A stretch of 64,000 nucleotides of DNA from Candidatus Latescibacterota bacterium (GCA_965204745.1 OZ242010.1:2368001-2432000), one strand, 5' to 3'. Shown: positions 13,697 to 36,771, counted from the stretch's first letter. Numbers and translations: made by a program. The notes: a model not told the origin generated them from the sequence alone.

Positions 13697-16600
13697 ATGG
13701 ATCCTCGATTTACGCTGGAAAACGGCACGGGTATTTTTACGGGCAATGAATTGATCGTCAAGGGCGGTCTCGAAGGCGGCATGGGGTTGATGACCGGCTA
13801 CCCCGGTTCCCCTGTGGCAGAAGTGTTTGACGCCGCAGAGCGCGTCCGCGAGTTGTTGGTGGAAAAGGGCGTCATGGTGCAAATTGCCAACAACGAAGCC
13901 CTGGGGGCCGCGCGGCTCAACGGCGCGCAAATGGACGCGATCCGCGCTATCGCAGTGATGAAAAGCGTGGGCGCGCACGTCGCTTCAGACGCGCTCGCCC
14001 TAGGCAACATGGCCGGCACCGGCGAGGGCGCAGCAGCGGTCGCGGTCTTTGGCGACGATACGTGGTCCGAAGGCACGCAGGTGCCAGCCGATTCGCGGTT
14101 TATCGCCAAACACCTGTACATGCCCGTGCTCGAACCGAGCACCTTTCAGGAAATGAAAGACTGGATCAAAGTCGCCTTCGAGTTGTCGGAACAAACCCGG
14201 CTTTACATCGCGTACCTCGTCACGTCCAATCAGGCAGATGGCGGCGGCACGGTTGCGGTACATCCCAACCAATTTCCCGAACGGACGTTTCTCCGTCCCG
14301 CGCGCCTGGATCCCGCCGCGATTTCGCCGGACGAACGGGTGATCATTCCCCCGCACACCGTCGTCAAAGAAAAAGAAGTGCTCGAGGAGCGCTTTCCCCA
14401 CTTGCTCAGGCTCGCAAAAGACGATGGCCTGAACCGGATTTTGTACGGGCCGGACGCTGGCAAAAAGCAGATCGGCTTTGTCACCAGCAGTTTGGCCTAT
14501 TGTTATTTGGAACACGCGCTCACCATGGTGGGCTTGGGGGGTAGCATCCCCATTTTGAAATACGGCATCACCCACCCGATAGATGCGGACATTTTGCGCG
14601 AATTCGTCGGCATGGTCGATGACGTGTACGTGGTGGAGGAAAAACGCGGGTTTTTGGAGGAACAGATCACCGCCGCGCTGCAAACCATGCATCAGGCCGG
14701 GCAAATCGGCGCGTTTCGGGTCTGGGGCAAGCGCTTTCCCAACGGACGCGGTTTTCCCGACAGTTGCGGCCTGAACCCGAGCATCGCGCTCGAGGTGCTC
14801 GCGCCGGTGTTGAAATCGCTCTCCGATCCCAGCGTGCCCGTGGACCACACGCGCATCGACGACGCGGTCGCATTGATGGCGCAGACCAAAACGTTCGACC
14901 TGACCCCTTCGGTTCGCACGCCCTCGTTTTGCCCGGGCTGCCCGCATCGGGATTCGGCGAGTGTGTTGGACAAGATGATCGACGATTTTCGCAACCGCGA
15001 TTACATGCGCCGCAAGCACGGCGAGGAGCAGACAGATCTGATTTTTCACGGGGATATCGGCTGTTATTCCCTGCTGAAATACGAGCCGTTCAATCGCTTG
15101 ATGCACAACTTGTCCGGGATGGGCCTAGGCGGGGGCACGGGCGCGGGCATCGATCCCTTCATCGACAACAAACAAGTCGTGTTCATGGGCGATTCCACGT
15201 TTTTCCACAGCGGGATGGCGGCGATTTCCGATTCCATCAAACACGGGCAAGACATCACCTACGTGATTTTGGACAACAAGACCACGGCCATGACCGGGCA
15301 CCAGCCCACGCCGGGCGTGGATATCGACCTGATGGGACAGCCCACATTTGCCCAAGACATCGAAGACGTGGCGCGCGGGTTGGGCGGGGGCACAGATGGC
15401 CCGGTGCTGGTCACGCGCATGAACCCGGCCGACAGAGACGCGTACCGCGACGTTTTGGAGCGGGCGATCCTCAAAGACGGGGTCAAAATCGTCATCGCGG
15501 ACAAGGAATGCGGCATCACCTATCACCGCCGCATGCGCGCAGAGCAGCTTCAGACCACTCGGGAAAAGGGATTTCTGCCCGAAGAGACGCACATCAACAT
15601 CGCGTCCGAAGTCTGCGAGTACTGCTTGGAATGCACGCGGGCAACCGGGTGTAGCGGCCTCACAGTCGAGGAAACGCTCCACGGCCCAAAGGTGGCGACC
15701 GACCTGTCCCTGTGCGTGGCGGATGGGGCGTGTACCAAGGTGGAAGTCGCCAATGGCGATAAGACCTGTCCCTCGTTTGAACGCCTGACCATTCACCGCG
15801 TGCGCGCGCCCGAAGTGCAAACCGAGTCTATCGAGTTGTCGGATATCCCCGAACCCGAATGCCGGGATTTTGACACGGCTTGGTACGCGTACGTGGCCGG
15901 CGTTGGCGGCATGGGCGTCAATACCATTTCCGCGATTATCGCTGTTGCGGGCGCGCGGCAGGGCTATACCGTGCGCTTTACGAACAAAAAGGGGTTGGCG
16001 ATTCGCAATGGCGGCGTGTATTCGCACGTCAGTTTTAGCCGCAGTGATCGGGTCATTTCGCAACTGACGCCCTACGGGCACGCGGATTTGTTGTTGGGCT
16101 TGGATATCTTGGAGGCCGTGCGCGGGTTGGATCCCCATGGCACGGGCCGCGTTGCCAGCCCGCAGCGCACCACCGCTGTCGTGGAGACCGGCAAGCGCGA
16201 GACCATTTTGTCGATGATCGGCCGCGACGAGTTTGATACGGATAACTTGGAGGATATTTTGCGGCAATACACCGATGCCGACACGTATTTCGGGATGGAC
16301 TTGGGCGAAATATCCGAACGCTATTTGGGCAATAAGATCTACGCCAACAGCATTTTGCTCGGCGCCGCATTTCAACGGGGCGCGTTGCCCCTCTCGCTGG
16401 AGAATATCCGCTGGGCGATGAAGCAAAACATCAAAGCGAATGAACTCGACGCCAATCTCAAGGCGTTTGAGATGGGCCGCAAGGCCGCGTTGCATCCCGA
16501 AGCGTTCGCAAAGCCCGAACACGCGATCACGTACCGCGACCTCATCGCGGAGAAGGCGGGGATTTTGGCAAAGACAAAGGGCAAAAAATTGGCCGAGACC

Positions 16601-17302
16601 TATCGCGCACACGCAGAGACAGTCGGCGATTGGGCCCTTTCAGACGCGACAAAATTCCAGTTCGCACTCGGGGTGTACGATTTGATTCAGTGGGGCGGCA
16701 TCGAATGCGCGCAGGCCTATCTCGCGCGCGTCAAGCAGACCTACGCCCGAGACGAGGCGCGCTACCAATACGCGGCGACCGATGCGGTGACGCGCTTTCT
16801 CGCCCGGGTGATGGCGTACAAAGACGAGATTTACGTGGCGCATCTCTTGACGAGCGAGGAAAAGTACCGCCGCGATTGCACACGCTACAATGTCGATCCC
16901 GCCCGCGGCGACAAAATTTCCTACCGACACCTGACGCGCCCGCATTTCCAGGTGCTCGGGTTGGACATCAAATTCGATATCCAAACGCGCGACTGGATGC
17001 TCAATCTCATGAAGCGCGCCCGCTTTTTGCGCCGCCTCCCGGCCTGGCACCGAGAGGAGAAGTCCTATCGCGACTGGTACATCGATCTCGTGGATGGCTT
17101 TGAATTTGACAGCGCGGCGCGCTACGAGACATACCTCAAAGCCCTGCGCCTGCCCGATGAAGTGCGCGGGTACCGCGAGGTGATCTGGCCGAAAATGGCC
17201 GCCGCCAAAAAAATGGCCGACCACTGGCTCAACGGCAATGGAACGCCCCCAAAGCTGGACCGCGAGGTTCTCGATATCGAACCCGTGGTCGAGAAGGCTT
17301 AA
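13697..17302 (+). CDS. Fused indolepyruvate:ferredoxin oxidoreductase family protein
   Basis: TGYPGSP, ANNEA, RTPSFCPGCPH, GDIGCY, GDSTFFHSG, DNKTTAMTGHQP, ferredoxin Cys cluster, GVGGMG, MAYKDE. Confidence 0.9.
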   Translation: MDPRFTLENGTGIFTGNELIVKGGLEGGMGLMTGYPGSPVAEVFDAAERVRELLVEKGVMVQIANNEALGAARLNGAQMDAIRAIAVMKSVGAHVASDALALGNMAGTGEGAAAVAVFGDDTWSEGTQVPADSRFIAKHLYMPVLEPSTFQEMKDWIKVAFELSEQTRLYIAYLVTSNQADGGGTVAVHPNQFPERTFLRPARLDPAAISPDERVIIPPHTVVKEKEVLEERFPHLLRLAKDDGLNRILYGPDAGKKQIGFVTSSLAYCYLEHALTMVGLGGSIPILKYGITHPIDADILREFVGMVDDVYVVEEKRGFLEEQITAALQTMHQAGQIGAFRVWGKRFPNGRGFPDSCGLNPSIALEVLAPVLKSLSDPSVPVDHTRIDDAVALMAQTKTFDLTPSVRTPSFCPGCPHRDSASVLDKMIDDFRNRDYMRRKHGEEQTDLIFHGDIGCYSLLKYEPFNRLMHNLSGMGLGGGTGAGIDPFIDNKQVVFMGDSTFFHSGMAAISDSIKHGQDITYVILDNKTTAMTGHQPTPGVDIDLMGQPTFAQDIEDVARGLGGGTDGPVLVTRMNPADRDAYRDVLERAILKDGVKIVIADKECGITYHRRMRAEQLQTTREKGFLPEETHINIASEVCEYCLECTRATGCSGLTVEETLHGPKVATDLSLCVADGACTKVEVANGDKTCPSFERLTIHRVRAPEVQTESIELSDIPEPECRDFDTAWYAYVAGVGGMGVNTISAIIAVAGARQGYTVRFTNKKGLAIRNGGVYSHVSFSRSDRVISQLTPYGHADLLLGLDILEAVRGLDPHGTGRVASPQRTTAVVETGKRETILSMIGRDEFDTDNLEDILRQYTDADTYFGMDLGEISERYLGNKIYANSILLGAAFQRGALPLSLENIRWAMKQNIKANELDANLKAFEMGRKAALHPEAFAKPEHAITYRDLIAEKAGILAKTKGKKLAETYRAHAETVGDWALSDATKFQFALGVYDLIQWGGIECAQAYLARVKQTYARDEARYQYAATDAVTRFLARVMAYKDEIYVAHLLTSEEKYRRDCTRYNVDPARGDKISYRHLTRPHFQVLGLDIKFDIQTRDWMLNLMKRARFLRRLPAWHREEKSYRDWYIDLVDGFEFDSAARYETYLKALRLPDEVRGYREVIWPKMAAAKKMADHWLNGNGTPPKLDREVLDIEPVVEKA

Positions 17303-17325
17303 ACCCGCCCGCGATCATTCAAACG

Positions 17326-17616
17326 ATGGAGCATCCGATGAAGCGCGTTTTTACAGTAAAGGCCATCTGGGACGATGAGGCGCAGGTCTTCTACGCCCAA
17401 AGCGATATCGAAGGCTTGCACATCGAAGCCGCCAGCCTCGACGAATTTGAAGAAATCATGCTGGACGCAGCACCCGAATTGATCCTGGTCAACCACCGAA
17501 GCGCGTCCGGTATCTCCGAATATCCCTTGAAAGATTTGATACCGAGCATTCTGTGGCAAAGGTCGGAGACGGAAAGGACGATCCTGAAAAGTGCGGGAAG
17601 CATAAACAAGTTCTGA
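17326..17616 (+). CDS. DUF1902 / HicB-like small protein
   Basis: VKAIWDDEAQVFYAQSDIEGLHIEAASLDEF..AAPELI. Confidence 0.75.
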   Translation: MEHPMKRVFTVKAIWDDEAQVFYAQSDIEGLHIEAASLDEFEEIMLDAAPELILVNHRSASGISEYPLKDLIPSILWQRSETERTILKSAGSINKF

Positions 17617-17628
17617 TCGGAGGTAATA

Positions 17629-18576
17629 ATGGGTTTTTGGGACACACTACGTGAAATTGCAGTAGATATCTGGAAGGAATATCAAATTGCCCAAGTCTAT
17701 CCAACACTGCAAGACGCGGTGAATAAATATCGCGCTGATGACTACGACTTGATAAAATGCGAACCACCTTGGTTTGCTACACTCAAAAAACAAGGGGTGT
17801 TTGGTGCAAAGACCGTCACGCTTAGAGTGCAAGAAGATGGGTCGGTTCACGTTCTTGAAAGTGGTGTCTTCGGCGAGGAAAGGGTGATCCCTAAAACAGT
17901 AGGTGCGCCGACACCCCAGGAATTTATACAGATGCTTGAAGAAAGGGAGGCCGAAGCTCAAACTCGTCAAGCGTTGAGTGAAAACGAAAAAAACGCCATC
18001 GCCTTTGGAACGCTGTTTTTGATGTTCGGCAAACTGGCAAAGGCAGATTCGCAGGTATCGAAAGATGAAATCAGCGCGATTGAAGAGTTCATGACCGAGG
18101 GAGAATTGGACCAAGAGGCCCGAAAAGTAGCGATTGAATTTTTCAACGAAGGTAAAGAGACGAAAACGCCATTTCGGGAAATCGCCGCTGAATTTGCACA
18201 ATATGCAGAAGATGTCGAAATGCGTCGATATGCTCTGTATTGTCTCGTGCAAATCGCTACCTCTGATGGTGCGTTACACGCAACAGAGGAACGCTATCTC
18301 AACGAAGCGGTCGTCGCATTTGGCTTGCCGCCAAGCATCTTGGCCGAAGCCTTGGAAGAAATACTTCCCGACATGCAGAAGTACTATGAGATTTTGGGTT
18401 GCGATCCTTCGGCTTCCGATGACGAGTTGAAACGATGCTACCGTGAATTAGGAAAAAAATATCATCCAGATCGAATATCTTCGAAGGATCTCCCGCCTCA
18501 TCTTCTCAAACTTGCAGAAGAAAAATTCAAAGAGATCCAAAACGCCTATCAGATCATAACCCAACATCAAAAATAA
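17629..18576 (+). CDS. TerB-like plus J-domain co-chaperone (DjlA-like) with an atypical N-terminus
   Basis: LAKADSQVSKDEI and IATSDGALHATEERYL (TerB-like); YYEILG..YRELGKKYHPD..FKEIQNAY (J domain); RBS ggagg. Confidence 0.85.
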   Translation: MGFWDTLREIAVDIWKEYQIAQVYPTLQDAVNKYRADDYDLIKCEPPWFATLKKQGVFGAKTVTLRVQEDGSVHVLESGVFGEERVIPKTVGAPTPQEFIQMLEEREAEAQTRQALSENEKNAIAFGTLFLMFGKLAKADSQVSKDEISAIEEFMTEGELDQEARKVAIEFFNEGKETKTPFREIAAEFAQYAEDVEMRRYALYCLVQIATSDGALHATEERYLNEAVVAFGLPPSILAEALEEILPDMQKYYEILGCDPSASDDELKRCYRELGKKYHPDRISSKDLPPHLLKLAEEKFKEIQNAYQIITQHQK

Positions 18577-18681
18577 GCATCCCGTCCACAACGAACAGAA
18601 TCTCAAATGCTGATCGGTAGCGATGGGATTATCTATTTTTGATAGACAAAAACCTACTTATTTTTAACGAGGAGCATACCT

Positions 18682-19857
18682 ATGTGGCCTATGATTGCAG
18701 AACCCGGCCTACGCTGTGCAGAGTGCAAACATACTATCCAACCGGGCCGGTTGTGTCTGTCCGAGTTGCCCGAGGAAACGCCGGACGGTGTCAGCCGTGG
18801 CGACTTCAAAAATTACTGCATCGGTTGTCCCGACTGCTGGCGATATGGCAAACACGCCTGTTATGTCCGCTACTTAGACTCCGGGCGAAGCATTGGTAAA
18901 ACGCCCCGCAGTCTGCCCTGTGCCCGTTGCGGTCAACGCATTGGAGCGGATGAAAAAGCCGGTGTTGATATTTACTACGACTGGCCCGGCGAAACCGAAG
19001 ACGGTCATAGCAGGACACTGACCCAAGCCAGCGTCGCCGGACTGACCGCCGCTACCCAGGTAGGCACAGTCATACGCGGCGTGCCCGATGGCTCTTTCGC
19101 CAGCCTTACCGACAGTCTGCAACGCAAATTTATGGACGCCGGACTACGTGACGGAACAAGAAGCTTTGCCGAAGCCCAAGCTCTTTATCAAGAATCAGTG
19201 CCCTTATTCGTCCAAAACTACGGCGAAGATGCCGTGAAGCAATTCCTACAAGGCAAGGACGCCAGCCACATCAAGTCAGTGCATAATGCGCCTCACTTGG
19301 CTACCGACCATAGCAACATTCTATGGGAAAACTCCGGTATCAATCGCGCCCGAGGGGCCGCCGATATGACCGGAAGGGAGCATCTCAATGCCCAAGCCAC
19401 CAACGCCTTTGACGCTTCGCAAATCATGTTGCGGGAATGTGCTACCGCCGCTGGTTCCGCCGCTCTATTCGCCGCTCTACTTGAAGCCCCGGTCAGCGGC
19501 ATTGAAAACTACATCCATTACAGGAAAGGTCGCAAAACAGGCGAGGAAGCCATCAAGGATGCTGCCAAATCTATCGCTATACACGCCGGTTCTGCCGCCA
19601 TCGTCGGCATCGGCGTAACCATCGCTATCGGTTTGGGAGCCGGCCCCATCATCGCCACGCTTGCCCCCATCCTAATGCCCATAGGTTTCGCGTTGTATGG
19701 CAGTAGCGTCCTGAAACGCATTCTGAACGCACTGGCAGATGGCCTGCCGTTGCATCGAATAGGCACTTACTTCTGTAGTCCTCGTTGCCATACTATGTTC
19801 GCTTACGAGACGGGTAAGTCGGCCTTGATACGGTGGGAAGCGAATCGAATTGCGTAA
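18682..19857 (+). CDS. Hypothetical protein: Cys-rich N-terminus, HNH-like motif, hydrophobic C-terminus
   Basis: CAEC, CIGCPDC, CARC; DASHIKS...NILWENSGINRARG; hydrophobic stretch AAIVGIGVTIAIGLGAGPIIATLAPILMPIGFALYG; YFCSPRC; RBS gaggag. Confidence 0.75.
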   Translation: MWPMIAEPGLRCAECKHTIQPGRLCLSELPEETPDGVSRGDFKNYCIGCPDCWRYGKHACYVRYLDSGRSIGKTPRSLPCARCGQRIGADEKAGVDIYYDWPGETEDGHSRTLTQASVAGLTAATQVGTVIRGVPDGSFASLTDSLQRKFMDAGLRDGTRSFAEAQALYQESVPLFVQNYGEDAVKQFLQGKDASHIKSVHNAPHLATDHSNILWENSGINRARGAADMTGREHLNAQATNAFDASQIMLRECATAAGSAALFAALLEAPVSGIENYIHYRKGRKTGEEAIKDAAKSIAIHAGSAAIVGIGVTIAIGLGAGPIIATLAPILMPIGFALYGSSVLKRILNALADGLPLHRIGTYFCSPRCHTMFAYETGKSALIRWEANRIA

Positions 19858-19894
19858 CTGACGTTACGCGGTACATCAAATAAGGAGAGCACCA

Positions 19895-20755
19895 ATGAGT
19901 CAATACCCGTTCAATCTGCGAGGCAAGCAAGAACATGTGCATGGTACCGGCCTCACAAACAGTCAAATCCAAGAAGGCATTGTCCAGCGTAGCCGCGAGT
20001 TCGTTCTGAAACAAGGGGTTATTATTGCAGATATCGCACATCACGGCTACGACGACTTCAAACTGCAATTCATCCCCACTGAAGGCTCTAGCGAAGAAGC
20101 TACCGCCGCCTCAATTGGTGGAGCCTTCGGTGCTAGTGCCGCCTTGGGCGCACGTTGGCCGCGGCGAAAGCGAGCGCGTTGCCTTGCTGGTGCCGCTTCT
20201 GGTGCCGCCTTGGGTAGAATTGTGCCCGGTGCAGGAACAATAGCTGGCGCGTTGATAGGAGGAGTGGTCGGATATTTCACGGGCAATGCAATCTGGACGC
20301 CTGTCGATTGTCGAGGAACATTCGACGCATCTTGCATCAGGCGAGTCAACGAAGACGGAGAAAACGCCCTTTCACCAGGTAAATACTACATAGAAGTAAC
20401 GGCCAAGGATAGATGGACTTGCAATTTTATTCAGCCTGATTTAGGCCAGCCATGGGGCCCTTTGGTAGTTGAAGATGGTAACTTCGACCAAGACAGCATA
20501 GGGGCAGGACTTCACATCCATGGCCCCTTGGAATCTGGCTACCGACCAACGCTTGCCAACATCTATCACAGGGGCCTCGGAGAATTTTATGCCGCTGCCT
20601 ACAGTGCCGATGGAACCCACCAATGCACTGTATTTCAAGAAACTGGGCAATTCCGAGTTGAGGAATATCAAACAGAGATCAAACCCGGCAAGGAGTACTT
20701 TCTCTATATTGAAGCCCATGGTGATTGGTTCATAACCTTCACTGAAGGGTACTAG
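19895..20755 (+). CDS. Hypothetical protein with a glycine-zipper segment and beta-rich flanks
   Basis: AGAASGAALGRIVPGAGTIAGALIGGVVGY; RBS aaggag. Confidence 0.7.
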   Translation: MSQYPFNLRGKQEHVHGTGLTNSQIQEGIVQRSREFVLKQGVIIADIAHHGYDDFKLQFIPTEGSSEEATAASIGGAFGASAALGARWPRRKRARCLAGAASGAALGRIVPGAGTIAGALIGGVVGYFTGNAIWTPVDCRGTFDASCIRRVNEDGENALSPGKYYIEVTAKDRWTCNFIQPDLGQPWGPLVVEDGNFDQDSIGAGLHIHGPLESGYRPTLANIYHRGLGEFYAAAYSADGTHQCTVFQETGQFRVEEYQTEIKPGKEYFLYIEAHGDWFITFTEGY

Positions 20756-20943
20756 GGTATGTGCGATAAATGCTTTACGCGGGTTCTCCCCGTCGTTATT
20801 CCCGTAAGCGTGTGTTGGAATGACGTATAGTGCAACTTGGGCAATTATCACATCCGAATATCCCTTGAAACAAACGTGCGGGTTGGTTATATTCTGCACG
20901 CGAAATTTTTCCCTGTAAATGCACATCTCAAGGAGGACGTGTT

Positions 20944-22092
20944 TTGAGCAACAACGATTGGAGGACGCACAACGAATCGGGCAGCAAGCGCGTGGTCGTG
21001 ACCAAGGAATTGCCCGGTGACCGCTGGCTCGAGATTCTCACAGCGGCGGATTGCCGCGTGGAAATCGGCACCTCGACCGAAATTTTGAGTGTCGAAGAGA
21101 TCAAAGACAAAATTGGCGATGCGTGCGATGGCGTGATCGGGCAGTTGACCGAAACCTGGGGCGAACCCCTGTTTGCCGCGCTCGAGAACGCGGGCGGCAA
21201 AGCGTATTCAAACTACGCGGTGGGGTACAACAATGTCGCTGTGGATGCGGCGACAAAATGCGGCATTCCCGTGGGCAATACCCCGGGGGTTTTGACCGAG
21301 ACCACAGCGGAAATGGCTATCGCACTGACGTTTTCAGCCGCGCGGCGCGTGGTCGAAGCCGACGCGTTTATGCGCGCTGAAAAATATCGCGGCTGGTTGC
21401 CCACGCTCTATTTGGGCGAGTTGATGACCGGCAAAACCGTGGGCGTGATCGGCGCCGGGCGCATCGGCTGCGCGTATGCCAAGATGATGGTCGAGGGGTT
21501 CAAGATGAACGCGGTCTATTACGACCCCTATCCCAATGCGTATATGGAAAAATACATCGCGGCTTATGGCGACTTCTTGGCGTCTCAAGGCGATTCGCCC
21601 GTGACCTGCCAACGCTTGGACTTGGTCGAAGACGTGTTGCAGGTCGCCGACGTGGTGAGTTTGCACCCGCTGTTGGACGACACCACCTTCCACCTGATGA
21701 ACACCGAGCGACTGTCCCTGATGAAAGACAATGCCATTTTGATCAATGCCAGCCGCGGGCCGGTGATCGACGAGACCGCCTTGGTCGAACACTGCAAAAC
21801 CCACCCGAATTTCCGGGTCGGACTCGACGTGTTTGAAGACGAGCCTGAGATGAAACCCGGCCTCAAAGACTTGGACAATGTGGTCATCGTGCCGCATATC
21901 GCGTCTGCGACGATCTGGACGCGCTCTGGCATGGCGACATTGGCCGCGTCCAACGTGGCTGGCGTTTTGAACGGGTATGGCGCGTGGCAAAACCAAGACG
22001 ATGTGTTGCCCTTCTTGGGCGACGATCCCCCAAAGGCCGCGCCGAGCATTGTCAATGCGAAAGAGGTCGGCCTGTCCGCCCATGAGGGCTAA
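20944..22092 (+). CDS. D-glycerate dehydrogenase / hydroxypyruvate reductase, plant-HPR-like
   Basis: DGVIGQLTE, AVGYNN, NTPGVLTETTAE, GAGRIG, MMVEGFKMN, NASRG, LDVFEDEP, PHIASA; TTG start after aggagg. Confidence 0.9.
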   Translation: MSNNDWRTHNESGSKRVVVTKELPGDRWLEILTAADCRVEIGTSTEILSVEEIKDKIGDACDGVIGQLTETWGEPLFAALENAGGKAYSNYAVGYNNVAVDAATKCGIPVGNTPGVLTETTAEMAIALTFSAARRVVEADAFMRAEKYRGWLPTLYLGELMTGKTVGVIGAGRIGCAYAKMMVEGFKMNAVYYDPYPNAYMEKYIAAYGDFLASQGDSPVTCQRLDLVEDVLQVADVVSLHPLLDDTTFHLMNTERLSLMKDNAILINASRGPVIDETALVEHCKTHPNFRVGLDVFEDEPEMKPGLKDLDNVVIVPHIASATIWTRSGMATLAASNVAGVLNGYGAWQNQDDVLPFLGDDPPKAAPSIVNAKEVGLSAHEG

Positions 22093-36401: not shown

Positions 36402-36771
36402 GGGGGCGACATGGATTCGACGGGGGTGGAGAGATGATGGCTGCGTGTCGAGGTGCCCAATCACCTCGTAAAACAATTGGGAAAAACGCAACTGCGGACG
36501 ATAACACGTACGCAATGGCTGCCTAACCAACCGTTACGCAGTCCGTTCTGTCAGACCTCGCCTGCGTGGTCTGGGTCAGGGCGCCGACGAGAGCAGGCTG
36601 GTTCGGGAGTTTCCGCTCGAGGACATCCGAACGAGACAAAATCGGGCTGGCATCTCAATGACCCTGTCTGTTGGGGCGCGGGATGCGAGATTTCAAATGA
36701 ATAGACTACACACGTAGATGCCGTTGTCAAACCGCTTTCGGACGCGGGTTCGATTCCCGCCGCCTCCACCA
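36402..36771 (+). ncRNA. ssrA: tmRNA; probable tag ADDNTYAMAA* at 36494-36526
   Basis: 5' GGGGGCGACATGGATTCGAC; 3' GGACGCGGGTTCGATTCCCGCCGCCTCCACCA T-arm and acceptor; tag ends in AA-stop. Confidence 0.97.

Follow-up and report, generated by a model that had tools for sequence, protein, structure and literature searches.

A 64,000-nucleotide stretch of the genome of a Candidatus Latescibacterota bacterium (OZ242010.1:2368001-2432000; hereafter the window) carries two adjacent genes, P2 and P3, that form a conserved, unnamed and co-moving pair. P2 encodes a cysteine-rich membrane protein with a putatively nuclease-like centre, P3 encodes a protein with two predicted beta-sandwich domains, and both families appear undescribed in the libraries searched. 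A preliminary description of the locus had treated P2, P3 and the gene upstream of them (P1, a TerB-J protein) as one three-gene system within an islet bounded by an 18-bp direct repeat. Comparison with relatives instead separates a two-gene pair from a DjlA-like neighbour, and the repeat from the ends of the inserted DNA. We hypothesize that P2 may be a membrane-anchored HNH-type effector controlled by P3.

The P2-P3 insertion and its spread

The pair occupies the following positions of the window:
18631..20856, plus strand: P2-P3 insertion, 2,226 bp, absent from the closest relative, where 16 other bases stand
18682..19857, plus strand: P2, 391 amino acids (aa), with a Cys-rich N-terminus, a central domain, a hydrophobic stretch (296-344) and a Cys/His tail
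19895..20755, plus strand: P3, 286 aa, with two beta-sandwich domains (7-61 with 137-183; 185-286) in an AlphaFold2 (AF2) model

The window belongs to a genome of 5,482,115 bases (G000). Its region 16500-22000 was searched in 41 genomes, G000 included, nine regions of which were then read in detail, and its region 16800-21500 was compared with contigs from four public sequencing runs (X3, X4, X5, and X7). The closest relative (G018; 88-92% DNA identity) lacks the pair. In one contig from run X3 (depth 19.5), just four bases, GCCT, separate 18630 from 20857 and the 2,226 bases are missing; an X3 contig identical to the window over P2 has a depth of 2.6. In X7, a loose end before 20857 corresponds to the empty form seen in G018 (contig depth 55.7), and the contigs with P2-P3 have depths of ~5-9. 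Upstream of the pair the strains differ as well. A 4,712-base X4 contig holds P2-P3 and the downstream dehydrogenase gene, with other sequence leftward from 18592 and the body of P1 uncovered, and in an X5 contig 357 different bases replace 421 in the 5' part of P1, as in G018, giving a TerB-J gene of the transmembrane type that is followed by P2. Runs X4, X5, and X7 hold P2-P3 at 90-99% likeness. Several strains thus carry the pair here, with upstream neighbours that are not the same, and others lack it; it came in as a single 2,226-bp segment immediately to the left of the second copy of the 18-bp repeat. DNA likeness to other genomes is limited to the pair, beginning at ~18636-18670 and ending at 20754-20759, and neither terminal repeats nor a mobility gene were seen in the insertion. 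The earlier view of the block as horizontally acquired is supported, and the block is accessory.

Beyond this site, 29 loci with P2 relatives were taken from species-representative genomes. A P3-like C-terminal domain is directly adjacent in 27 of them (19 downstream on the same strand, 8 convergent), and the remaining loci have a fragment of P2 (L051) and a copy truncated where its record ends (L052); in the loci read, full-length P2 members always adjoin the same partner family. Record titles assign the pair-bearing genomes to metagenome-assembled genomes (MAGs) of Latescibacterota, Dehalococcoidia, Acidimicrobiales, and Spirochaetia, that is, four phyla or classes. Across these MAGs, full-length copies of P2 share 54-80% identity, and P3 shares 27-64% with swapped N-terminal parts. 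Clustering of 357 open reading frames (ORFs) from the neighbourhoods revealed no other recurrent neighbour of the pair.

The P2 domain family is large and nameless in all libraries searched. A word-based search returned 231 relatives at E ≤ 0.001; among the 120 matches listed, these are 57-96% identical, ~390-420 aa long, and without a Pfam domain or name. The P2 profile matched 529 representative clusters (E ≤ 0.001), 312 of them at E ≤ 1e-10, and P2 itself matches no Pfam, NCBIfam, PHROG, or PADLOC family. The distribution is sporadic: of 168 genomes in the phylum, 11 matched P2, and within the genus only a decayed fusion remnant in G017 accompanies the copy in G000. When 401 genomes in the class of G169 were searched with a P3-bearing query, the centre genome alone matched its P3 part. 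A scan of Joint Genome Institute (JGI) metagenomes with alignment A1 gave one short locus.

P2, a cysteine-rich membrane protein with a possible HNH-like core

The N-terminus of P2 holds nine cysteines in residues 12-83 and an invariant GRLCLSELPEE; faint LIM/zinc-finger matches to this part (E 8 against PDB sequences; Pfam LIM in 2 of 64 members) are at chance level. The central domain carries the motif S195-H196...N212...E216...N221-R-A-R-G. Across 64 diverse members, S195, H196, N212, E216, N221, R224, G225, M229, E275, and N276 are near-invariant, and P204 and E268 are invariant. The protein continues into the strongly hydrophobic stretch 296-344, where mean hydropathy reaches its maximum of 2.12, in agreement with the earlier description of a membrane protein, and ends in a tail carrying C365, C369, and H370.

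The central motif was compared with HNH domains from the relatives. Of 21 picked PF01844 loci, 19 were aligned (two were dropped because of a stop codon in the translated stretch), and the P2-family alignment (A3, residues 150-245) was matched to them with hhalign. The comparison scored 18.7 (P 0.0047) in a register where the SH of P2 meets DH, N212 meets the first Asn of the HNH motif, and N221 meets the Asn within CN..KG. None of 200 column shuffles reached this score (mean 9.3, standard deviation 1.9, maximum 15.9), and the reversed alignment scored 7.9. The AF2 model of P2, a low-confidence model, has a strand-strand-helix arrangement at 192-224, and distant family members read SHIHPHSEGGS...N...LNRARG, nearer the canonical HNH pattern of the relatives' proteins. 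A His-Me-finger core in the P2 central domain is moderately supported by these likenesses. For the HNH-like label given to gene 2 in the preliminary description, Pfam offers no match, and the likeness appears only in a weak custom profile-profile match that no shuffle equalled.

Other searches with P2 gave little. In a fold search with the P2 model, only a helical hairpin (242-354) was matched, with Z up to 7.0, which is uninformative for the central domain. In a language-model atlas, with 0.9 as the level for a lead, P2 scores 0.90-0.91 with unnamed cyanobacterial clusters, and GmrSD_C (0.86; 13% of members) and Tox-GHH (0.83) fall below that level. Profile searches of PDB sequences with alignments A1, A2, and A3 returned nothing better than E 0.7.

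P3, the double beta-sandwich partner

The AF2 model of P3 has a predicted local distance difference test score (pLDDT) of 75.3 and a predicted template modelling score (pTM) of 0.72. A Gly-rich segment (65-131) splits the first domain, and the C-terminal domain and the final TEGY are conserved in the P3-family alignment (A2); 22 P3 relatives were found. Gene 3 had been called a glycine-zipper protein; its match to PF13488 (residues 97-133) reaches 23.2 bits, short of the Pfam gathering cut-off of 25. The segment is mildly hydrophobic (1.54), is missing in several relatives, and is replaced in others by an N-terminal hydrophobic helix. It also varies among strains, since over 20134-20230 X5 has 10 bases for 52 and X7 lacks 12 and 6 bases. 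In the window's own P3, a basic stretch, ARWPRRKRARCL, is inserted in the Gly-rich segment and is missing from relatives, and 21-base direct repeats lie there.

Foldseek found nothing for the P3 model in the PDB at E ≤ 0.001. The best VIA-align match was YomS (6i5o_A; Z 7.9, root-mean-square deviation 3.4 over 95 residues), in a range that the tool calls common, and the next fold matches (PPC, GOLD, CBM, and collagen-binding domains) are generic, so that no function follows from them. The language-model atlas returned nothing usable for P3. A complex prediction of P2 (A3) with P3 (A2) scored 0.00 in two runs without controls, which says nothing either way.

P1, a DjlA-like neighbour

Upstream of the pair lies the gene that the preliminary description had counted as the first of its system:
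17629..18576, plus strand: P1, DjlA-like class C J-domain protein, 315 aa, by its Pfam domains

P1 consists of an N-terminal domain without a family (1-110), a TerB domain (PF05099, 132-239, E 2.4e-15), and a DnaJ domain (PF00226, 251-315, E 1.2e-15) with an HPD motif (YHPDR), so its earlier naming as a TerB-J protein holds. TerB-DnaJ is given as the DjlA architecture and the most abundant bacterial class C type (PMC10410713), and DjlA is described as a transmembrane helix, a TerB-like domain and a J domain, acting as a DnaK co-chaperone at the membrane (PMC11709261). The best NCBIfam match of P1 is co-chaperone DjlA (NF006948; 133.7 bits, E 8.7e-39), short of the curated cut-off of 162, as is that of its G018 orthologue (137.5 bits). 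No 19-aa window of P1 has a mean hydropathy of at least 1.4; the G018 orthologue is the transmembrane form, with a hydrophobic N-terminus. The 110-aa N-terminal domain recurs in 23 of 49 members of the TerB-J subfamily, and the proposal that it is a degenerate P3 domain was rejected (hhalign probability 0.25%). Within the genus, the P1-type gene is accessory, present in 5 of 21 genomes and always at this locus.

Three of the 49 subfamily proteins (P0129, P0141, and P0327) are fusions with an N-terminal P3-like part (hmmsearch E 1e-82 to 1e-97). Because their order, P3 then TerB-J, differs from the gene order of the window, they are not read-throughs of the arrangement seen here. Over the TerB-J part, P1 shares 59% identity with P0129, 57% with P0141, and 61% with the G019 orthologue; the only PADLOC matches of P0129 and P0141 are weak (E at least 1.4e-4). 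A TerB-J protein (P0295) and a P3-like protein (P0123) each have 7,336 bases as their longest listed contig and may be encoded together. At the pair loci the picture is different: none of the 29 has a P1 relative within 6 kb, and all five other pair-bearing genomes that were searched whole hold only generic J domains and no P1-like TerB-J, and the place of P1 beside the pair may therefore be coincidental. The proposal that the three genes form one unit is not supported, co-occurrence being limited to genes 2 and 3. On present evidence P1 is not simply a bystander, and its link to the pair, made through fusions, is not obligatory.

The same TerB-J subfamily is also found fused to VOC/glyoxalase domains (PF00903; P0306, P0309, and P0311), and the form in G011 (P0296) has two TerB domains and several hydrophobic helices.

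A hypervariable spot with toxin-antitoxin remains

The pair and P1 lie between two metabolic genes, in a gap with these further features:
13697..17302, plus strand: left flank, indolepyruvate ferredoxin oxidoreductase family gene (NCBIfam NF009589, E 1.5e-134)
17326..17616, plus strand: DUF1902 (HicB-like antitoxin) ORF (Pfam PF08972, E 8.8e-9)
17515..17532, plus strand: left 18-mer, codons 64-69 (SEYPLK) of the DUF1902 ORF
18592..18630, plus strand: spacer piece common to forms without P1 or without P2-P3
20853..20870, plus strand: right 18-mer, upstream of the dehydrogenase gene, on the -35 box
20865..20893, plus strand: sigma-70-like promoter of the dehydrogenase gene (TTGAAA-17-TATATT; agrees with the consensus at 10 of 12 positions), the region's best promoter-like site
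20944..22092, plus strand: right flank, D-2-hydroxyacid dehydrogenase/glyoxylate reductase-like gene (Pfam PF02826, E 2.2e-41; NCBIfam)

The 3' end of the oxidoreductase gene was matched in 40 of the 41 genomes (short pieces only in G024; none listed for G036), as was the dehydrogenase gene (none listed for G023, an 82%-complete assembly). Both flanks were matched in 19 of the 20 other genus genomes, and in G011 they stand on different contigs. The gap between them is a hypervariable spot in the genus. It measures ~40 bp in most genomes, for example G008, and elsewhere holds cargo that varies among DUF1902 with a HicA-like gene, a small ORF with a PIN gene, a DjlA-like TerB-J gene, and other genes, the DUF1902, TerB-J, and PIN genes standing in differing orders in G001, G004, G009, G011, G018, and G019. 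G018 has DUF1902, TerB-J with a hydrophobic N-terminus, and then directly the dehydrogenase gene. G019 has a frameshifted TerB-J, a small ORF with a PIN gene (PF01850, E 7e-14), a truncated DUF1902, and a 639-aa glycine-zipper/coiled-coil gene; G004 has the same parts in the same order at the level of DNA and protein matches. G011 combines DUF1902 with a J protein that has two TerB domains, G009 has a DUF1902 gene that breaks off within the 18-mer and abuts the promoter, G001 has a DUF1902 gene followed by an overlapping HicA-like ORF (PF07927, 24 bits, below the cut-off of 27), and G016 has relics only.

The window itself shows such remains. The Pfam match of its DUF1902 ORF ends near residue 57, and the ORF closes with ILKSAGSINKF, where the HicA-like ORF of G001 ends in ILKSAGSIKKV. 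A hicA-like toxin gene has been deleted down to its last 11 codons, which are fused to the DUF1902 ORF. The spacer at 18592-18630, preceded by other sequence in the X3 and X4 contigs, resembles the beginning of the PIN gene (ATGCTGATTGA...) as it stands in G019, G009, and G016, and is probably what is left of the 3' end of an antitoxin gene and the first part of a PIN toxin gene. Our confidence in the structural reading of the locus is high.

Several observations concern the spot and its genes more widely. The 639-aa protein of G019 (L017 2102-4021, minus strand) combines a glycine zipper (PF13488, E 2.6e-4) with a long coiled coil, has weak PADLOC matches to LeoB (E 2.8e-7) and LmuB (E 1.4e-5), and adjoins the dehydrogenase promoter. 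In G016, two copies of a GC-rich palindromic unit, GTAGGGGCGGTGCCCCCGTGC, resembling a repetitive extragenic palindrome (REP), fill part of the spot (spacer L020). The DUF1902 gene is 76-84% DNA-identical in another family, at other loci of G025, G027, G029, G034, G035, G037, and G040, whereas the flanking core genes in those seven genomes reach only 66-72%; being more alike across families than the core flanks, the antitoxin gene may itself be moving horizontally.

Elsewhere in the window, a transfer-messenger RNA gene (36402-36771, plus strand; tag ADDNTYAMAA) is the sole tRNA-like gene that ARAGORN finds.

The 18-bp repeat

Between the two copies of the repeat lie the three co-oriented ORFs listed above (315, 391, and 286 aa), each behind a ribosome-binding motif (GGAGG, GAGGAG, or AAGGAG), an arrangement that ORF calls and the sequence confirm as first described. 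The lower GC content reported for the block is likewise confirmed: the DNA between the repeats has a value of 0.507, while the flanking genes have 0.595 and 0.584 and the window as a whole has 0.574; by gene it is lowest in P1 (0.457), with 0.557 in P2 and 0.517 in P3. Reading of ORFs and Pfam matches gave no integrase or transposase inside the block.

The 18-mer, TCCGAATATCCCTTGAAA, occurs exactly at both places. Allowing up to 3 mismatches returns the same two matches only in the window, up to 2 mismatches returns only these copies in the whole genome, and in 100 shuffles of the window 0.03 matches are expected and none of the 100 gives at least two. Because it is genome-unique and no shuffle gives a pair, the repeat is real and not a product of chance, and the concern that it might be common genome-wide falls away. 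Its two copies have different settings. The left copy is intragenic, so that the repeats also enclose the 3' end of the DUF1902 gene. Orthologues in G001 and G018 have near-identical sequence at the same codons, and the 50 bases to its right (17533-17582) are still orthologous to their DUF1902 genes, which means that this copy is not the boundary of an element. The right copy overlaps the -35 hexamer of the dehydrogenase promoter. CTTGAAAC-N(15-17)-TATATT is present in 12 covering relatives (G018, G016, G001, G006, G002, G014, G017, G019, G009, G003, G004, and G008), with no exact match in the G010 locus L014, and other genus members have different sequence upstream of CTTGAAAC. G016 and G018, which lack P2-P3, carry most of the right site at the corresponding place on the -35 box, with 16 and 15 of its 18 bases, respectively. 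In G018, both copies stand in diverged form (13 of 18 bases alike) around its DUF1902 and TerB-J genes, and G016 has no DUF1902 match at this locus, though its right site is present. The two repeats thus predate genes 2 and 3. One 18-mer belongs to the DUF1902 coding sequence, the other is a near-copy of that piece on the -35 box of the dehydrogenase gene, and the pair is not a target-site duplication of the block. An empty site had been proposed as a check. Empty forms do exist in a relative and in contigs, but they lack 18631-20856 and not 17533-20870, so the claim that the repeat bounds an inserted islet fails.

We infer that the right copy is a relic of a second DUF1902 gene that was fused to the promoter by deletion. 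The order small ORF-PIN-DUF1902-promoter in G001, G009, and G019 suggests this, as does G009, where a truncated DUF1902 visibly abuts the promoter. A piece ATGCTGATYG, like the start of the PIN gene, persists in the P1-P2 spacer of the window and in the G016 spacer. Against the relic origin stands the finding that the likeness of the right site to DUF1902 cannot be traced beyond 14-17 bases. Further DUF1902 sequence upstream of the right site in G016 and G018 was sought and rejected, local alignment scores equalling those of controls with shuffled upstream sequence.

Two other accounts of the 18 bases were weighed. In one, they are a target-site duplication or attL/attR pair of a single three-gene element that would be a chaperone-controlled defence system. 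The genome-unique repeat, the lower GC between its copies, three co-oriented ORFs with ribosome-binding sites, and the P3::TerB-J fusions are what such an element would predict. This account is nonetheless highly improbable, given that DUF1902 orthology continues through 17533-17582, that G018 has both sites without genes 2 and 3 and G016 the right site without a DUF1902 match, that the empty forms of X3 and X7 miss 18631-20856 only, that the block contains no integrase or transposase, and that no pair locus has TerB-J within 6 kb. In the other, the 18 bases are a recombination hot spot or attachment-site-like (att-like) core for cassette exchange, with a recombinase acting in trans. Three separate junctions fall inside the same 18 bases and keep this account alive: in G019 and G004 the likeness to DUF1902 stops after TCCGAATATCCTT, in G009 it stops after TCCGAATAT, and the third is the right copy itself (sites in L017, L018, and L019). 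The confinement of the right-site likeness to 14-17 bases fits it too. We consider it distinctly unlikely, however, because no recombinase gene lies in any relative's locus read, the left end of P2-P3 (18630/18631) is not at a core copy, the 18-mer is absent elsewhere in the genome, and truncations just past the DUF1902 domain (~residue 57) may be merely those that are tolerated. A deletion relic of duplicated DUF1902 genes is the reading kept here. More generally, an exact, genome-unique direct repeat around low-GC genes need not mark an insertion, and can be the leftover of duplicated toxin-antitoxin genes at a recombination-prone spot.

A proposed function for the pair

We hypothesize that the pair acts as a conflict-type module, belonging with toxin-partner or abortive-infection systems. 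In it, P2 would be the conserved effector, tethered to the inner membrane via its hydrophobic stretch, with its zinc-finger-like N-terminus and HNH-like beta-beta-alpha centre facing the cytoplasm. P3 would be the fast-evolving partner that restrains or triggers P2, and P1 an optional accessory bringing DnaK to P3 via its J domain. To this reading, in which a membrane-anchored HNH-type effector is controlled by P3 and TerB-J optionally recruits DnaK to P3, we assign a probability of roughly 0.4. The pair behaves like a selfish or conflict module because it is sporadic, found across phyla at high identity, strain-variable, and decaying, and because a conserved effector-like gene adjoins a fast-evolving partner and the pair lies here among the remains of toxin-antitoxin genes. 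Should the pair prove to be a defence or addiction module, it would represent a new effector architecture of zinc finger, HNH-like core, and membrane hairpin, and it would be among few cases of a J-domain co-chaperone wired into such a system by gene fusion. A bolder version is unlikely. It would be a new conflict system that roves horizontally, in which P2 is a membrane-anchored, zinc-finger-guided HNH-type nuclease gated by P3 as a fast-diversifying double-beta-sandwich sensor, and in which a DjlA-type TerB-J module, either fused to P3 or encoded beside it, couples the gate to DnaK in some lineages. Were it true, chaperone engagement would decide effector firing, for example when phage proteins flood or hijack Hsp70.

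Several results pull the other way. No Pfam HNH-type match was obtained for P2 (E ≤ 0.1), for 20 relatives (E ≤ 0.05), or for 64 members (E ≤ 1), and a scan of the whole genome with PF01844 gave 10 matches, none at P2. The HNH probability assigned by hhalign itself is 7.5%, and the AF2 model of P2 is poor (pLDDT 49.5). Two family proteins, P0148 (1291 aa) and P0153 (908 aa), carry nine and six tandem copies of the central domain, most without the His, with a single C-terminal hydrophobic region each; tandem His-less copies would be odd for a catalytic domain and so argue against catalysis by P2. Part of the decay may be apparent, since P2 is split or truncated in 6 of 28 loci (L028, L040, L045, L049, L050, and L051) and some MAG frameshifts may be assembly errors. 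A scan of viral contigs found no P2 relatives, and the pair-bearing genomes without a P1-like gene, counted above, limit any role of P1.

Placement among defence genes also fails to favour the hypothesis. PADLOC-DB 2.0 has no family for P1, P2, P3, or DUF1902 at E ≤ 0.1, which agrees with the earlier remark that the combination was not recognised as a named system. Near the pair (140 ORFs from 20 loci, L024-L043, of 193 selected ORFs), 15 ORFs have PADLOC matches at E ≤ 1e-5 and 8 loci have one at E < 1e-15. In the control, 133 ORFs from 20 random 10.7-kb regions (L112-L131) of seven pair-bearing genomes, 22 ORFs match and 12 regions have a strong match, so there is no enrichment near the pair and placement in defence islands is not supported. 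PADLOC-matching genes are dense throughout these genomes. Immediately around the pair at 27 loci, the closest two ORFs to either side (108 in all) comprise metabolic genes as well as small accessory ones, among them DUF433/DUF5615, HTH/DUF6932, PaREP1, Uma2, Mrr, GmrSD_N, IS110, and IS21. The random control regions themselves include a Cas9-Cas1 locus in G170 and, elsewhere, HEC-01A, PglZ, and AbiLi-like genes. A literature search on TerB/J-domain/DjlA, glycine zippers, and anti-phage systems returned no such system; the P2 and P3 families, being nameless, gave no name to search for.

Two further explanations share parts of this evidence. The pair, with or without P1, could be an accessory membrane-stress or proteostasis module, made up of a zinc-binding membrane protein and a beta-sandwich partner and attended by a DjlA-like co-chaperone, in which the HNH-like motif is a non-catalytic binding fold. 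P1 is DjlA-like, and DjlA is a membrane co-chaperone of DnaK (PMC11709261); TerB-J proteins are fused to varied N-terminal parts, including VOC/glyoxalase domains; the tandem, mostly His-less copies of the P2 domain fit binding; and the neighbourhoods lack a defence-island signal and are in many cases metabolic. Such a module would not be expected to be sporadic, strain-variable, decayed in some copies, and shared across phyla at high identity, nor to keep S195, H196, N212, and N221 near-invariant, and most pair-bearing genomes have no P1, so that we judge it unlikely. The other explanation, which we think improbable, makes P2 a membrane-tethered nucleic-acid-binding regulator or sensor, with zinc fingers and a degenerate HNH that serves for binding, and P3 its ligand-binding or signal-receiving partner. 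It draws on the faint LIM/zinc-finger matches at the Cys-rich N-terminus of P2 and on the binding modules (CBM, PPC, GOLD, collagen-binding; Z 6-8) nearest to P3 in fold, but the tools themselves rate all those matches as no better than chance, searches gave no DNA-binding family, and no conserved target gene stands beside the pair. The membrane-anchored effector with a controlling partner is the reading we prefer.

Comparison with known systems

HNH/His-Me-finger nucleases (PF01844 and kin) serve as effectors in defence systems, such as PtuB in Septu and Cap5 in CBASS. In the weak hhalign match, S-H(196)...N(212)-x8-N(221)-R-x-R-G of P2 falls in register with the D-H...N-x8-N-x-x-K-G of HNH proteins from the relatives. 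Unlike these, P2 lacks the CxxC pairs around the motif, has Ser for Asp or His before the His, adds a membrane hairpin and a Cys-rich N-terminal domain, and is matched by no curated model. With HNH domains of polymorphic toxins (Tox-GHH; GmrSD_C), the pair shares a nuclease-like gene followed by a faster-evolving partner gene, but P2 has no secretion or delivery domain, and P3 (~225-435 aa in its family, with two beta-sandwiches) is unlike the small immunity proteins of such toxins.

P1 resembles DjlA in having a TerB domain followed by a C-terminal J domain with an HPD motif, and differs in scoring below the curated cut-off and in having a 110-aa N-terminal domain in place of a hydrophobic segment. 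With Shango, named in the preliminary description and made up of the TerB protein SngA with a helicase and an ATPase, a TerB domain is shared and nothing more; no PADLOC model matches P1, P2, or P3 (E ≤ 0.1), and the block contains no helicase or ATPase gene. The surrounding remains are closest to HicA-HicB in its DUF1902 form, given the DUF1902 domain in the window and the DUF1902 gene overlapping a HicA-like ORF in G001, with the differences that the toxin of the window is deleted but for its last 11 codons and that the HicA match in G001 lies below its cut-off (24 versus 27 bits).

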